DNA of 64,000 nucleotides from an uncultured Acidobacteriota bacterium (GCA_963784195.1 CAWARA010000015.1:166334-230333); one strand, 5' to 3'. Positions 20,149 through 26,203 are shown, counted from the stretch's first letter. Notes: generated by a model from the sequence alone, not told the origin. Made by a program: numbers and translations.

Positions 20149-20178
20149 GCACGTGGCACGTCGGCACGTCAGCACGTG
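20149..20178. repeat. GCACGT tandem array (4 units)
   Basis: GCACGTG GCACGTCG GCACGTCA GCACGTG, intergenic. Confidence 0.8.
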
Positions 20179-20193
20179 ACACACTATCTGCCA

Positions 20194-20805
20194 ATGAATC
20201 ACGATCAGATATTCCGCGCCGTACTGACAGTTGCCCTGCTGATCTTTCTTCCCATTGGCATCTACCACAGGGTCAAGTCACAGGCGACGCGTGAGAAGCT
20301 CGATCGGAGTCAGGAGGGCGTGTTCATCCTGGCGACGCTTCGTCCGGCTGCCGCCGGGTTCTGGTTCGGAACGTTCGCGTGGATGTTCAATCCGGCCTGG
20401 CTGGCCTGGTCGTCAATGCCATTGCCGGTCTGGCTGCGTTCGGTCGGCGTTGGCATGCTCGCCAGTGGCTTGTGCCTGGCGGTGTGGACCTTTCGCAGCC
20501 TCGGGCCAAACCTGACGGACACGGTCGTCACGCGGAAGCAACACACCCTGGTCTTACACGGGCCCTATCAGTGGATCCGGCATCCCTTCTACGTCTCCGG
20601 CGCGTTGCTCGCGTTGTCGATTTCCTTGATGGCGGCGAACTGGTTCCTGCTCGTGACCGGAGTCGTGCTGATCGGCCTGCTGGTGATCCGTACGAGGGTT
20701 GAAGAGGAGAATCTGGTCGCGCGGTTTGGGGATGGCTACCGTGGGTACATGGAGCGCACCGGCCGATTCTTCCCCAGAAGTCTGGCAAACCGGCGCGGTG
20801 CGTGA
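20194..20805 (+). CDS. Isoprenylcysteine carboxylmethyltransferase (ICMT/PEMT)-family membrane protein
   Basis: LVLHGPYQWIRHPFY, EEENLVARFGDGYRGY. Confidence 0.88.
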   Translation: MNHDQIFRAVLTVALLIFLPIGIYHRVKSQATREKLDRSQEGVFILATLRPAAAGFWFGTFAWMFNPAWLAWSSMPLPVWLRSVGVGMLASGLCLAVWTFRSLGPNLTDTVVTRKQHTLVLHGPYQWIRHPFYVSGALLALSISLMAANWFLLVTGVVLIGLLVIRTRVEEENLVARFGDGYRGYMERTGRFFPRSLANRRGA

Positions 20806-20807
20806 CG

Positions 20808-23800
20808 TTAGTGCCCGAACCAGCGTCCAGTCGACCGCTCTTCGACCGTGCGGGGTGACGGCGCCTGGGGCTCCGCAAGGCCATCGGACACGCGCTGCGG
20901 CAGATGGATCTTGAGCACCATGTTCCCCGACGGTTCCGCGGCCATCCACAAGTGGCCGCCGCAGTCGCCGACGAGTTCGAGCAGCACTCCGACATCCACG
21001 CCTGGCTTCGCGGTTGACGGCTGACCGCCGTCGGCGCCGGCAGGCTCGTTCCGGTGGCCGTTCGGCCAATGTGACGCTTTCTGGCTGTGCTCCTCGGTGA
21101 CGGTGATCAGCGCGTGCGCGCCGGGACGCACGTTCGGATACTTCGCCATGAACTTGCCATCCACCGTCACCCTCGTCAGATCGATCTTCAGGCGCCCGCC
21201 GTGTGGCATGCGTTGACGGGCGTATCCAGCAATGTTCACCAGGATCCGTTCGAGACGCTCGGCTCCGACGTCGACGTTGAGCGGGCGAGCGGTCTTCGGC
21301 AGGACGAACGTGATCTCGTCGCCGGCGACACGTTTGAGTACGGGCTCCAGCCCGCGCAACACCTCGGTCACGTTCACCGGCTCGAGGGCGCTCGTCTGCT
21401 GCTCGCCGTAGACGGCAATCTGTTGCAGGAAACTCGCCGCGCGCGTGACCTCGCCCAGCAGCAGCTCACCACGCTGCCGCAGCGCCGAGTCGCTGCCGAT
21501 GGCATCCAGCCACTGATGGCCATCTTCACTCACGTCGCGAAGCAGGTGGTTGCACGTCACGGCCACTTCCGATGCGAGCCGTCCTACGGCTTCCATCCGC
21601 TGCGCCTGACCGAGCTTTTCCTCCGTCGTCCTGAGATCGGTGATGTCTTCGACGATCATCTCGACCGATTCGGCGGGCGCGGCGAACGCCAGCAGGCGGA
21701 TGATGCGGCCCCGCCCGTCCTTTCTCTTCCACGTCGTTTCGACAGTTTCTTTTGCGTCAGTGCTCAGGCATCGCTCGATCAGCCAGCGCAGATCGTCGGC
21801 TGACGGGAATACCCCCGTCGCGAAATCGGTGGACCGGAGCTCGTCGGCCGTTCGGTAGCCGAGCAGACGCAAGAGCGCGCGATTGACGCGGACGATGGAG
21901 CCATCGCGAGTTACACGGCAGATGCCGTAGGGCGAGTGTTCGAGCAGCCGGCGAATTTCCGCGCGGCTCTCGTCGAGCTGGGTCTGCAGATGCGGCAATC
22001 GGTCGGCCTTGGCCCGCAGCGCGTCGCGATCCTTCGTCGTGATCTCCAACTCGCGCTTGAGATTCTTGATGTCCGATTGCAGCGTCCCGGCCTCGGCCTT
22101 GCCGGCTTCGACTGCCGCGTGGAGTTTGCTCTCGATCTCCGCGAGCGCTTCTCTAGCCGCCTGCTCCGACGCCCGGTGACGATCGGTCAATTGCTGAAGC
22201 TGGGCATCGCGGTCGGTCAGCAGGGTGCTGAGCCGGCCCACTTCCGCGAAGTGTTCACTGGCCACACGCGTGATGGCCTGATGGTCCTCGCGGACTTCGT
22301 CCAGCGTTCGCTGCAACGCGGCGTACTCGGCAGCCTGTTTGAGTCGGTCGATTTCGGCAGCCGTTCGTTCGTGGCCGCGGCCGTCTCGCTCTTCGGCCAA
22401 AGCAGTGTCGAGCTGCTGAACCTGATCGTGCGCAGTCTTGAGCGTCTGCTGCAGCGAATCCCGTTCGAGGCCGAGCCGCCCGAGGGCCTGCCGGGTATTC
22501 GTGAGGTCCTGCTCGGCAACTTTCTTCGCCTCGATCTCCAGAGCGATCTGCGCCTCGAGCTCGCTCTGACGAAGCGAGGCGGCTGTACGCTCGTCCCCTG
22601 CGAGCTCCTCGATGAGCTGACGCGCGGCCTCGGTATCGGCAAGCCGCCGTTCGAGTGTCGTCCGGGTCTCGGCGGCCTCTGCGAGCATCGTCCCGAGCTC
22701 TGACTCGCGTCGCGCGAGATGCGCACTCGCCGCCTCGGCCTGTGCGGCGCGCTCTTGCTCGACCCGCTCCAGCGTTGCAGCCGTGGTGCGAAGCTGTTGT
22801 TCGACGGCGTCGCGCGCGGCGATGGCCTGAAGCAGTCGCGCGGCGTACTCGGCCTGGCTCTCGGCAAGCTGGGCTTCGGCGATGCTCAGTTCGGACTTGT
22901 GGCGCTCGTCCGCATCGCGGTGCGCCGCCTCCGCGGCTGCGAGGTTCTGCTCGAGCGCGGAGCGCATGGCCGCCGCTTGATCGAGCTGAGCTTCGAGCTC
23001 CGTCTGGCGCTGCGAGGCGGCCGCGCGCTCAGCCGATCCACGCTCCTCCGAGATTCGGTGCGCGTCTTCAGCCTCCGCGAGCCTTCGTTCCAGCGCGGTC
23101 CGGATCTCGGCGGCTTCCGCAATCGTCGTGCGCAGCTCTGTTTCGCGCTGCGCAAGATGGCGGGCTGCGGCCGCGGACTCCTCGGCGTGCTCCAGACGTG
23201 CCTGCTCGAGCGCCGCCTCTCGATCTCTGAGCTGCTGCTCGAGCGCCAGTCGCGTGCTCGCTGCCAGCTCGAGCCGAACCTCGAGGTCCCCGTGACGTTG
23301 CGCAGCCGCTGCCAGTTCGAGGGTTGCGCGTTCGTCGCCGGCCTGACGCGCCGCTTCGCTCTCGGCAAGCCGTTGTTCGAGGGTGGTCCGCGTGTCGGCG
23401 GCCTCGGTGAGCAGTCCGCCCAGCTCCGTTTCGCGACGCGCGAGGTGCCGGGCAGCCGCCGCCGATTCTTCTGTGCGTTCGTTCTGGGCTCGTTCGTAGG
23501 CCGCCTGAATGTCACGGAGCTGCTGTTCGAGCCCTGCACGCGTGTCGGCACTCTGAGCGAGTTGAGCCTCGAGGTCCGACTCACGCCGTGAGGCGGCCGC
23601 CAGTTCGACCATCGCTCGCTCGTCGGCGCGCTCACGCGCGGCCTCGACGTCTCCAAGCCGGCGTTCGAGGTCTGCCCGGGTCGTCGCAGCATCGGCCGCG
23701 TCTTGCGCACGTTCCTGCGCGGCGCGCTCGAGTGCCATCGCGCCGTCTCGCACCTGTTGCTCGAGCGCTTCCCGAGCGGCCGCGGCTTGTAACGCTGCGG

Positions 23801-25172
23801 CGTCGTGCTCTTCCTGCCGTTCCGCAAGCCGGGACGCTGCGGTCTTCAGCTCGGACGTGAACCGTTCGATGGCGTCCTGGTGCGCTGCTTCCAGATTCGC
23901 GAGCTTCTGCTCGAGGGTTGATCGGGTGGCCGCCGCTTGCGCGAGCAGCCCCTCGAGTTCCTCTTGACGACGCGCAGCGGCAGCGCGATCCGCCGAGCCG
24001 CGCTCGTCGGCGAGTTGTCTGGCCGCCTCGGCGTCGGCAAGCTGGCGTTCCAGCGATGTCCTCGCATCGCTGGCTTCAGCCAGCATTGCCGCGAGTTCCT
24101 GTTCACGGCGGGCGAGGTGGTCGGCTGCGGCTGCTGCCTCGGCGGAGCGCAGTTGCCGGATCTCTTCGAGGGTGGCGGCCGTATTGCTGAGCTTCTGGGC
24201 GAGCGAGTCACGGGCGCGCGTGACTTCGGCGATGGCGGCCGAGTATTCGGCCTTGCGGCGAGCCAGGTCGCTGGCGGCCAGAGCCGCTTCCGACTCGCGC
24301 TGTTCCTCGGAGCGTTCGAGCGCGGCGTGCGATTCTGCGAGTTTCTGTTCGAGGGCGTCACGCGCCGCATCGGCGGCTGCCAACCCAGCGTCGAAATGGG
24401 ACTGACGCTCGGCGAGGTCCTTGGCAGCCGACCGCAACTCCGTCGAGTGCCGCTCTTCGAGGGCACGCCGGGCCGCCTCCGCCTCGGCAAGCTTCCGTTC
24501 GAGGATTTCCCGTGTGGATGCCTCCCGGAGGAGACGGGCTTCAAGTCCCGCCTGAAGATCGATGGCAGCCGCCTGCTCAATCGACGCCTGCCGTTCGGCC
24601 TGCTGGCGGGCGGCTTCGACGACGGTCACCCTGAACTCGAGGGCGCTTCGAATCGCGACGGATTCGTCCAGCGCCGTCCCCAGTTCCGCTTCGCGCTGCC
24701 GGAGCTTTTCGGCCGCGGCCGCGGCGTCCGCCGCGCGCTCCTGGCGCAAGAGTTCCAGCGCCCGTTCGGCGTCACGAAGCTTCTGGGCGACCGTGTCGCG
24801 ATTCTGCGCCCGCTGAAGACCCCGGCGGACGACGTCCGGCAGGTCCGCGAGCAGCGACTGGCTGCTGACGACGTAGTCGTCTGGCCCCGTTCCGAGCATC
24901 GCGGGAGGCGCGCCGTCACGTTCCGCCGTGACGGCAAAGACCGGAGCGGTCAGCCCCTGGTCGCGAAGGCGGCCGACGAACGCCGCGCAGGCCGGGTCGT
25001 CGACGTCGGCTTCGAAGATCAGGGCGGCGATGTCCCGGTTGCCCTCCGCCCAGGCCATTGCGGCGGACTGGGATCCGGCCCACGAAACCTTGACATCGTG
25101 TGCAATATTGCGAAGAGCGTAGGCGGCAAGCTCCGCGGCACGACGGTCGGTGGCAACGTAGAGGATTTTCAT
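20808..25172 (-). CDS. Giant coiled-coil protein: pseudo-receiver, ~950-aa coiled coil, PAS, degenerate histidine-kinase module
   Basis: MKILYV REC-like start; A/E/R/L-rich repeats; PAS (VNRALLRLLGY…WKRKDG…EDITD); AQRMEAVGRLA H-box lacking His. Confidence 0.85.
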   Translation of the reverse strand: MKILYVATDRRAAELAAYALRNIAHDVKVSWAGSQSAAMAWAEGNRDIAALIFEADVDDPACAAFVGRLRDQGLTAPVFAVTAERDGAPPAMLGTGPDDYVVSSQSLLADLPDVVRRGLQRAQNRDTVAQKLRDAERALELLRQERAADAAAAAEKLRQREAELGTALDESVAIRSALEFRVTVVEAARQQAERQASIEQAAAIDLQAGLEARLLREASTREILERKLAEAEAARRALEERHSTELRSAAKDLAERQSHFDAGLAAADAARDALEQKLAESHAALERSEEQRESEAALAASDLARRKAEYSAAIAEVTRARDSLAQKLSNTAATLEEIRQLRSAEAAAAADHLARREQELAAMLAEASDARTSLERQLADAEAARQLADERGSADRAAAARRQEELEGLLAQAAATRSTLEQKLANLEAAHQDAIERFTSELKTAASRLAERQEEHDAAALQAAAAREALEQQVRDGAMALERAAQERAQDAADAATTRADLERRLGDVEAARERADERAMVELAAASRRESDLEAQLAQSADTRAGLEQQLRDIQAAYERAQNERTEESAAAARHLARRETELGGLLTEAADTRTTLEQRLAESEAARQAGDERATLELAAAAQRHGDLEVRLELAASTRLALEQQLRDREAALEQARLEHAEESAAAARHLAQRETELRTTIAEAAEIRTALERRLAEAEDAHRISEERGSAERAAASQRQTELEAQLDQAAAMRSALEQNLAAAEAAHRDADERHKSELSIAEAQLAESQAEYAARLLQAIAARDAVEQQLRTTAATLERVEQERAAQAEAASAHLARRESELGTMLAEAAETRTTLERRLADTEAARQLIEELAGDERTAASLRQSELEAQIALEIEAKKVAEQDLTNTRQALGRLGLERDSLQQTLKTAHDQVQQLDTALAEERDGRGHERTAAEIDRLKQAAEYAALQRTLDEVREDHQAITRVASEHFAEVGRLSTLLTDRDAQLQQLTDRHRASEQAAREALAEIESKLHAAVEAGKAEAGTLQSDIKNLKRELEITTKDRDALRAKADRLPHLQTQLDESRAEIRRLLEHSPYGICRVTRDGSIVRVNRALLRLLGYRTADELRSTDFATGVFPSADDLRWLIERCLSTDAKETVETTWKRKDGRGRIIRLLAFAAPAESVEMIVEDITDLRTTEEKLGQAQRMEAVGRLASEVAVTCNHLLRDVSEDGHQWLDAIGSDSALRQRGELLLGEVTRAASFLQQIAVYGEQQTSALEPVNVTEVLRGLEPVLKRVAGDEITFVLPKTARPLNVDVGAERLERILVNIAGYARQRMPHGGRLKIDLTRVTVDGKFMAKYPNVRPGAHALITVTEEHSQKASHWPNGHRNEPAGADGGQPSTAKPGVDVGVLLELVGDCGGHLWMAAEPSGNMVLKIHLPQRVSDGLAEPQAPSPRTVEERSTGRWFGH

Positions 25173-25255
25173 GCAGCCTGAAACGAGGGGAGTCTCCCGT
25201 ACTTCTATCGGACGGAGTAAGGATAGCTGCAATTCTGGCGGTGGAGGCTGCGTTA

Positions 25256-25279
25256 TCGGGGCTCGGGACTCGGGACTCG
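25256..25279. repeat. TCGGGAC heptamer array
   Basis: TCGGGGC TCGGGAC TCGGGAC TCG; similar array at 35625-35650. Confidence 0.7.
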
Positions 25280-25288
25280 TCCGGAAAT

Positions 25289-25313
25289 GTAGCGTCCGGC
25301 TTTAGCCGGACCT
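25289..25313 (+). repeat. GTAG-type REP-like hairpin
   Basis: GTAG-C-GTCCGGCT-TT-AGCCGGAC-CT. Confidence 0.85.
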
Positions 25314-25395: not shown

Positions 25396-26203
25396 ATGCC
25401 TGAAACAGTGGATTTGTACAACAACGTCTACGCCGACTTCGCAAGCCGCGCAGAAGCTGCGGTGCGGCATGATGCCTTCGGCGAGGACATCGGGCAGAGC
25501 AGCTGGCTCACCGCGACAGAGTGGCTTCGATTCGCCGATCAGGCACAGGTGCGTGAGGACAGCCATGTGCTGGAAGTCGGGAGCGGCTCCGGCGGTCCGG
25601 CGGTCTACCTGGCGACGAAACGCGGTTGCCATGTGACTGGGGTCGATATCAACGAGAACGGGGTCAAAAACGGGACCCGTCTCGCCGAGCTGCAGGGGGT
25701 TGGCGACCGCGTGACCTTTCAGGTCGTGGACGCCAGCCGGCCCCTGCCATTTCCCCGCGCGTCGTTCGACGCGGTGCTCTCGAATGACGCGATGTGCCAC
25801 ATCTCGAACCGCCAGGAGGTCCTCGAGGACTGGCTCCGCGTGCTCCGGCCGGGCTGGCCGGATGTTGTTCACGGACGCGATGATCGTGACCGGCCTGGTG
25901 TCCCAGGAGGAACTGGCGATCCGCAGTTCCATTGGTTTCTACCTGTTCGTCCCGCCCGGAGAGAACGAGCGCCTGATTACACGCGCCGGGTTCACCCTGC
26001 TCTCCGCCGAGGACCTGACATGGTCGGCCGAGACGATTGCGAAACGTTGGCACGACGCGCGCGAGCGGCATCGAGACGAACTGGTCTCGCGCGAGGGTGA
26101 GGCGAACTTCTCCGGCCTGCAGCGTTTTCTCATGATGGTCCACAGACTCTCGGCGGAGCGCCGGCTCTCCAGGTTCGGTTACCTGGCGGAGAAGACGGCG
26201 TGA
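25396..26203 (+). CDS. Class I SAM-dependent methyltransferase (+1 frameshift near 25855)
   Basis: AAGGAGG SD; VLEVGSGSGG; VLRPG/GRMLFTD continuity across frames. Confidence 0.85.

Follow-up and report, generated by a model that had tools for sequence, protein, structure and literature searches.

In Myxococcus xanthus, FrzS and AglZ carry an N-terminal pseudo-receiver on a long coiled coil, with the receiver serving for docking, and that of FrzS has been described as a pure docking domain (PMC9811614). In Streptomyces venezuelae, PsmA is a cytoplasmic hybrid pseudokinase with PAS domains, no H-box His and a degenerate ATP site, which acts as a polar scaffold and binds DivIVA (PMC12963549), its receiver lying beyond a spacer of ~700 residues, and in Caulobacter DivL is a PAS-bearing pseudo-histidine kinase to which the cited account ascribes neither kinase nor phosphatase activity (PMC4211667). 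We analysed a window of 64,000 nucleotides (the whole stretch of DNA considered here) from an uncultured Acidobacteriota bacterium (GCA_963784195.1, CAWARA010000015.1:166334-230333), in which a gene at 20808..25172 on the minus strand, hereafter the rod gene, encodes a pseudo-receiver joined through a long predicted coiled coil to a PAS domain and a pseudo-histidine kinase. On balance we favour the reading that this protein descends from a CckA-type hybrid kinase, has lost catalysis and acts as a non-enzymatic, dimeric coiled-coil tether, probably anchored to the membrane and probably under sigma-28 control.

By analogy the protein may work like FrzS/AglZ and PsmA while being a member of neither group. 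FrzS and AglZ, unlike the window's protein, are without a PAS domain or pseudo-kinase head, and in structural comparison FrzS stood at rank 46 (Z 14.3) for the window's receiver, among generic receivers, which does not support orthology. In PsmA the order is reversed (PAS-PAS-HK-spacer-REC) and the spacer is disordered and proline-rich, in contrast to the proline-free coiled coil found here; the likeness to PsmA is one of description, the nearest relatives found for the window's protein being HDFNN kinases. DivL has Tyr in place of the His, binds nucleotide weakly and has no giant rod and no receiver, whereas in the window's family no single residue has taken the place of the His, and the ATP boxes have given way to other sequence. 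The nearest relatives of the kinase part, at ~30% identity, are the CckA-type (HDFNN) hybrid kinases (NF046020, PDB 5IDJ; PMC5026420), many of them REC-PAS-HK-REC, and compared with these the window's family has lost all catalytic boxes, the cyclic di-GMP (c-di-GMP) site positions and the C-terminal receiver.

The frame is open from its ATG for 1,454 residues, bearing out the single uninterrupted open reading frame (ORF) claimed in an earlier annotation made without database searches (the sequence-only reading), and a database protein (P0002) has equal length at 99% identity. All the motifs quoted in that reading were located: VATD at residues 6-9, IFEAD at 52-56, GRLASEVAVTCNHLL at 1197-1211 (with V1205, codon 21558-21560, and H1209), NIAGYARQRMP at 1313-1323, TEEHSQ at 1359-1364 and PGVDVG at 1390-1395. 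Two of its assignments shifted slightly, however, since the phospho-Asp position within IFEAD is E54 and not D56, and the aligned G2 box starts one residue earlier than proposed, at K1389-V1394. Its failure to recognise the architecture as a described system agrees with our search of the available main texts, which found no published description of the family.

Profile searches and structure prediction were applied at both ends, as the sequence-only reading had called for. The Pfam scan recognised only the PAS domain (E 3e-8; also recognised by TIGR00229), with no match to HisKA, HATPase_c or Response_reg, while the C-terminal part matched NCBIfam CckA-type kinase models with E 7e-24, far under the model cut-offs, and 5IDJ, labelled CckA DHp-CA by the fold search, was the only PDB sequence match at E <= 1e-5. 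AlphaFold models were obtained for two fragments. Residues 1-125 were modelled as a receiver fold (predicted local distance difference test, pLDDT, 86; against PhoP Z 16.3, root-mean-square deviation (rmsd) 2.4, 115 residues aligned), and residues 1060-1430 as a PAS domain, a long helical hairpin (DHp) and a CA domain with a disordered lid region (pLDDT 79), the modelled CA matching that of NtrB (Z 15.3, rmsd 2.7, 134 aligned) and that of CckA (Z 14.4). All four domains, receiver, PAS, DHp and CA, are thus predicted to be folded. On the minus strand of the window the PAS domain (residues ~1073-1180) occupies 21633..21956, the pseudo-DHp hairpin (~1181-1261) 21390..21632 and the pseudo-CA, with its ATP-binding fold (~1262-1426), 20895..21389.

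A family search with residues 1060-1430 returned at least 120 proteins; identities among the matches listed were 51-99%, and every one with an assigned taxon was from the Vicinamibacterales. Shorter forms, many from short contigs, added 120 proteins to the family set, and a profile search of 1.84 billion representatives gave, among the matches listed, 150 proteins of which 128 were new. While 114 of these new matches scored as members, the remainder were mostly ordinary HDFNN kinases, and no H box intermediate between the two was seen among the profile matches listed. The resulting member sets comprised 348 unique kinase domains, 140 complete members and 307 tails.

None of the 348 kinase domains has the H-box His, or indeed any His within 1200-1207, and the site itself is variable (V, A, L or G). 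With the His gone and Thr as the following residue in 330 members, the D/ExxT/N phosphatase motif is lost as well. The shifted His1209, which the sequence-only reading had named as a possible site of autophosphorylation, is present in 12 of the 348 and was rejected as phospho-acceptor. Around the lost His, E1202, T1206 and C1207 (the last in 341/348) are near-invariant, as are H1353, C1404, H1407 and W1409; in the N box the first Asn is kept in 336 members, with Tyr at the second Asn position in 320 and Arg1321 in 342. Among 276 aligned members the substitutions were close to uniform (A to R in 276, F to C in 275, G to E in 271, second N-box Asn to Tyr in 266, G2 Gly to Asp in 266 and D-box Asp to Glu in 258), GxGL[GS] occurred in none, and the FEPFFTTK lid of canonical kinases was replaced by a hypervariable linker (21009-21092, minus strand, in the window). 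In contrast to these losses, 20 of 20 canonical control kinases, drawn from the members' own order, retain every one of H, D, N, DxGxG and GxGL. The c-di-GMP site of CckA (G318, Y514, K518, W523) corresponds, in an approximate mapping made through the canonical alignment and the CckA sequence context, to S1201, L/Q/V1398, G/A/R1402 and H1407; apart from the DHp Arg its positions are replaced, and a site of the CckA type was rejected as far as sequence can tell. With phospho-acceptor, ATP-binding and phosphatase residues lost across the family, the protein is almost certainly enzymatically silent.

Loss of the catalytic boxes does not equate with relaxed constraint. The ratio of nonsynonymous to synonymous divergence (dN/dS) was calculated by the Nei-Gojobori method for 861 pairs, which are not independent of one another. 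In the PAS-kinase region it was 0.10-0.32 for the ten closest pairs, rising to 0.6 in more saturated ones; it was lowest in the DHp (for example 0.034/0.53 and 0.018/0.89) and highest, near neutral, in the lid (0.34/0.39). In a quick unrooted tree of 67 rows, 29 members formed one group (Shimodaira-Hasegawa-like approximate likelihood ratio test 100) on a long stem followed by short branches. The sequence-only reading had proposed that the loss of H, N and G boxes be examined for purifying selection, and such selection was found, but its wording that every catalytic site had decayed has to be given up: judged from the alignments, the dead sites are fixed replacements and not decay, exchanged once for the now nearly invariant E1202, C1207, Y1317, R1321 and D1393. 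A kinase fold without catalytic residues that is conserved under selection is what defines a pseudo-histidine kinase, and this is what the family has.

The N-terminal domain (residues 1-123, 24804..25172, minus strand) has A7/T8 at the acidic pair, E54 at the phospho-site and S103 at the Lys site. A pseudo-receiver has been defined as a receiver lacking any of the five active-site residues, Asp to Glu being the common change (PMC12632262), and the domain fits that definition, with a receiver fold and at least one of DD, D, T and K missing. All five catalytic residues occur together in none of the 140 complete members, in which the phospho-site is Glu in 105 and Asp in 28; a second receiver, present in 20 of them, has Glu at this site in 18, with 2 not scored. 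The PAS domain is kept in 138 of the 140, P0339 and P0340 being without it.

Between the two heads lies the rod (residues ~126-1072, 21957..24797, minus strand). Residues 113-1059 contain not a single proline, and the hydrophobic period is 3.55 with a power of 33 against a shuffled maximum of 8, the period being 3.53-3.58 in 22 other members. Repeats of 46 and 50 residues, making a 96-residue unit, are visible only in the protein, no DNA tandem repeats of that size being found in the rod. The rise of an alpha-helical coiled coil is about 0.148 nm per residue, at which this copy's rod would span ~140 nm if straight, as the sequence-only reading had estimated, but this length is not conserved: in the 140 complete members the rod ranges from 19 to 1,350 residues (median 650). 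In some pairs with 100% identity one repeat block is present in only one of the two, possibly through collapse during assembly, but in 20 genome loci the distance from receiver start to kinase was 664-1,793 residues, so the spread goes beyond such collapse. When 46 close pairs were linked in a spanning tree, 93 of the 107 insertions and deletions of at least 3 residues fell in register, their length lying no more than 0.8 residue from a multiple of 3.556; random deletions passed through the same aligner did so in 65 of 111 cases. Some events enter the tally on two or more edges, and the members of four pairs were otherwise identical. With a length this variable and indels that keep the coiled-coil register the rod is no fixed ruler, and selection appears to maintain an unbroken coil and not its length. 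The periodicity, the in-register indels and the continuity into the PAS-DHp dimer together make a continuous parallel two-stranded rod very probable. Three other proteins of the genome also have proline-free, coiled-coil-like stretches of 290-465 residues (G000:C11:199314-201584, C13:149605-151506 and C23:69179-71893).

At the other end, of the canonical kinases nearest to the family, all 13 with a full match continue for another 131-150 residues at the C-terminus, about the size of a receiver, where members instead end in a tail of ~28 residues. Of 307 tails, 248 have W[FLIM] among their final 20 residues, with the consensus R-G-R-x-(M/L/V)-A-R-W-F-R-H. Over 251 tails the 9-residue core averaged 2.5 basic residues and 0.03 acidic ones, and its hydrophobic moment was 0.74, against 0.45 +/- 0.01 when shuffled. 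In the window the tail (20811..20837, minus strand) ends in W-F-G-H and follows a variable linker of ~19 residues; it is predicted to be an amphipathic membrane-binding helix, a feature missed by the sequence-only reading, which had reported neither a transmembrane segment nor a signal peptide. In MinD a C-terminal amphipathic helix binds membranes, one copy being too weak and dimerisation sufficing (PMC8155659). The resemblance to this targeting sequence, a short C-terminal basic amphipathic helix, is one of sequence pattern, and by a slight preference we suggest that the predicted tail may well bind the inner membrane, strengthened by dimerisation as in MinD. A divergent subgroup (P0331, P0332 and P0337) stops right after the CA domain and is without the tail.

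In genomes, match identity was bimodal (47-67% versus 34% or less). Across the order 10 of 201 genomes carried the gene (its own family accounted for 8, out of 17 and with the window's genome counted, and two other families for one each); it was present in 2 of 401 across the phylum, both from its own family, and in 44 of 112 genomes of that family (23 of 55 near-complete ones), with a single match each except in two genomes; here and below the 112 include one unpublished genome (G267). It is an orphan gene of a Vicinamibacterales family, mostly single-copy and without conserved neighbours. In the ESM Atlas the head region hit generic kinase clusters only. In one protein, P0070, a Glu/Gln-tRNA synthetase domain is joined on, probably through an assembly or frame error. 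The source names of P0216 and L051 lie outside Vicinamibacterales, which is likely mislabelling, since over this region L051 does not differ from one genome of the family to which the window belongs.

Upstream of the gene a promoter-like element is conserved. CCGATA lies 25-47 nucleotides before the ATG in all 17 of the first loci (some of them near-duplicates), mostly with TG(C/T)A 16-17 nucleotides earlier, and in the window TGCA-N16-CCGATA occupies 25206..25231 (minus strand), 33 nucleotides upstream of the ATG. In a held-out test of 28 further loci, 20 of which had a detectable start, CCGATA was found in 19 of the 20, and the promoter matrix scored at least 10 in 15 of the 20 compared with 1 of 80 control windows. 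The sigma-28 consensus has -35 TAAA or T(A/C)AA, N16 and -10 GCCGATAA (PMC8325347; bioRxiv 10.64898/2026.01.14.699351), to which the element conforms in its -10 and spacing, while its -35 has diverged, being mostly TGCA or TACA/TAAA. The genome holds one FliA/WhiG sigma over the TIGR02479 cut-off, as do 90 of 112 genomes of the family and 50 of 55 near-complete ones, and a search of the genome (90.5% complete) for flagellin, FlhA and the CheA dimerisation domain found none of them. WhiG/FliA regulons without flagella are known from Rubrobacter and Streptomyces (the same two sources), sharing the sigma-28-type promoter and N16 spacing and, in Rubrobacter, predicted to drive type IV pili; they differ in their targets and in the -35, and neither main text mentions Acidobacteria. 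We consider it quite likely, from the conserved promoter match, that the rod gene is transcribed by the orphan FliA/WhiG sigma. Four metatranscriptome runs from three studies contain short contigs, 90-99% alike, over the gene and its neighbours, although such contigs cannot show transcription, start or level.

A putative regulon was sought with a matrix trained on 15 homolog promoters and applied to 6,559 called genes, its top three being two paralogs of a ~70-residue protein and the rod gene, whose rank is partly circular because one training locus comes from the same genus; matches below about 16 bits did not exceed the opposite-strand control. The ~70-residue family (for example G000:C25:319635-319970, C25:202784-203047 and C20:957415-957624; L116-L118) has no Pfam family and occurs at 1-7 copies per genome in 94 of 112 family genomes, with CCGATA 9-17 nucleotides upstream in 26 of 29 loci; in several of these the -35 reads CTAAAG, and the promoter lies 9-20 nucleotides from the start (near-leaderless). 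The ESM Atlas places it in unnamed Acidobacteriota clusters only. It is a candidate partner of the rod protein or the candidate main target of the orphan sigma. Just upstream in the sigma locus (G000:C18:373566-375262; L084, L119) are an excisionase-like helix-turn-helix gene, which has a sigma-28-type motif in 19 of 22 loci, and a 65-residue HisKA-like peptide; the sigma itself is conserved in 92 of 112 genomes of the family. A pilC-led operon resembling a type IV pilus or type II secretion system (T2SS) had an upstream matrix score of at least 12 in 18 of 29 loci, compared with 3 of 113; in the window's genome it reads pilC-pilB-pilM/N/O-like-secretin-pseudopilin (G000:C30:158038-167450; L150), with only pilC confirmed by Pfam and the others read from sequence. 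The upstream match of the secretin gene, in 16 of 29 loci, lies within the preceding coding sequence, which confounds it. The genome also has two PilT genes and two receiver-PilZ proteins, one (G000:C20:960038-960697) with a promoter match that is not conserved and the other (C16:375681-376352) seemingly without the phospho-Asp.

Since catalytic residues are lost in all signalling domains, and these sit at the ends of a rod of variable length, a non-enzymatic tether is likely, as the sequence-only reading had suggested in proposing a non-catalytic rod that links two interaction heads. The ancestor would most likely have been a hybrid REC-PAS-kinase-REC protein that lost catalysis once, its C-terminal receiver being exchanged for the membrane-type tail and its receiver-PAS linker growing into the rod; the rod-less member P0331 would fit this order of events, but could also be a loss. 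In this model two copies would pair in parallel through their pseudo-kinase heads, which would probably keep a pair of amphipathic tails attached to the inner membrane; a rod predicted to span 50-200 nm would extend away from there, and the one or two pseudo-receivers at its far end would offer sites for docking. That the protein works at the cell pole or with the type IV pilus/T2SS-like machine, as FrzS does, is a guess by analogy, with a single ambiguous co-regulation signal behind it, and tentative at best. More speculative still is the full scenario, in which a whole hybrid kinase would have become a membrane-anchored, length-tunable tether with glutamate-locked receivers within a non-flagellar sigma-28 programme, together with the ~70-residue family and the pilus operon, and would position or gate the pilus machine at the pole.

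Several observations weigh against this interpretation or parts of it. Of 55 near-complete family genomes 32 lack the gene, while pilC is present in 31 of 31 and the sigma in 50 of 55, so the gene is accessory, and its co-occurrence with the sigma, pilC and the small protein is uninformative, all three being nearly universal in the family. The largest conserved cluster of neighbours comprised 4-5 related loci (23 and about 32 loci examined). The element upstream of pilC, TATAAT-N~16-CCGATAAT, includes TATAAT and may be a sigma-70 promoter, and the REC-PilZ gene was rejected as a regulon member, its promoter matching in 1 of 29 loci. No Roadblock/MglB domain was found in the genome at its 90.5% completeness (MglA and SgmX were not searched), so the polarity module that FrzS serves in Myxococcus may be absent. 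Neither rod nor tail is universal, given that P0331 (497 residues) has neither and that Trp is absent from 42 of 307 tails; the window's own tail is also weaker, with a moment of 0.46 over its last 11 residues. Finally, the strong conservation of PAS and DHp would suit a sensor equally well.

The main rival explanation is a DivL-like allosteric sensor in which the pseudo-DHp would bind a phosphorylated regulator, or the PAS domain or Cys1207 would sense a ligand, metal or redox state, with the change relayed along the rod or to partners bound to PAS. DivL is a precedent (PMC4211667), DHp and CA are more conserved than rod and PAS, and the near-invariant C1207, H1353, C1404, H1407 and W1409, like the almost constant presence of PAS, speak for a sensor; however, signal transfer would be hard to maintain along a rod that varies several-fold in length and has been rebuilt through duplications, the neighbouring genes include no cognate regulator, and the residues of the CckA c-di-GMP site are replaced, which leaves the sensor fairly unlikely. 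We regard as improbable the second rival, a cytoskeletal filament former akin to AglZ, Scy or crescentin, assembling membrane-attached filaments laterally or head to tail (receiver on the next pseudo-DHp). In its favour are the long heptad- or hendecad-like rod, the membrane-type tail and a receiver retained together with the DHp, and AglZ has been titled filament-forming while the FrzS coil forms periodic structures in E. coli (PMC9811614), but members share no long-range charge period (weak peaks at 5-8 residues, net charge strongly negative), and free variation in length is awkward for staggered packing.

The intact DHp fold, and the parent-type kinases encoded in many genomes of the order, might instead indicate a dominant-negative regulator that heterodimerises with an active HDFNN-type parent; no HDFNN kinase, however, was found among all ORFs of at least 70 residues in the window's genome (90.5% complete), and the DHp is only ~30% identical to those of the parent kinases, making this very unlikely. 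Very unlikely, too, is an active non-canonical kinase using His1209 or a Thr, Cys or Tyr acceptor, for although the CA fold, the first N-box Asn and T1206/C1207 are conserved, His1209 is rare, the Mg-binding Asn has become Tyr, the G boxes are lost and the lid is disordered and hypervariable. Rod frameshifts in many long-read loci and the identical pairs differing by one repeat block could be read as signs of a decaying pseudogene or an assembly artefact, an explanation refuted by dN/dS and family size: there are hundreds of intact homologs under purifying selection, with a conserved promoter.

As regards its surroundings, the stop of the rod gene lies 2 bases from the end of an ICMT/PEMT-family membrane methyltransferase gene (20176-20805, plus strand), tail to tail, which is not conserved beside homologs. 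On the other side, an S-adenosylmethionine methyltransferase gene (25396-26203, plus strand) is broken near 25850 into overlapping frames (25396-26100 and 25784-26203) by a frameshift or sequencing error. A short palindromic intergenic repeat, resembling repetitive extragenic palindromes, occurs in the window at 25294, 30667 and 47537 and has 190 matches in the genome, and a 7-base tandem repeat adjoins it at 25256-25279.

Few bacterial pseudo-histidine kinases have been characterised, and two of them, DivL and PsmA, organise cell poles. The family described here would represent a separate route, in which kinase and receiver both lost their activity once and came to be linked by a rod that can evolve; it may offer a handle on cell organisation in the Vicinamibacterales, a common soil order of which most members are uncultured. 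The question can be put to the test because the promoter finding names a sigma factor, a small family of putatively co-regulated proteins and a candidate machine.

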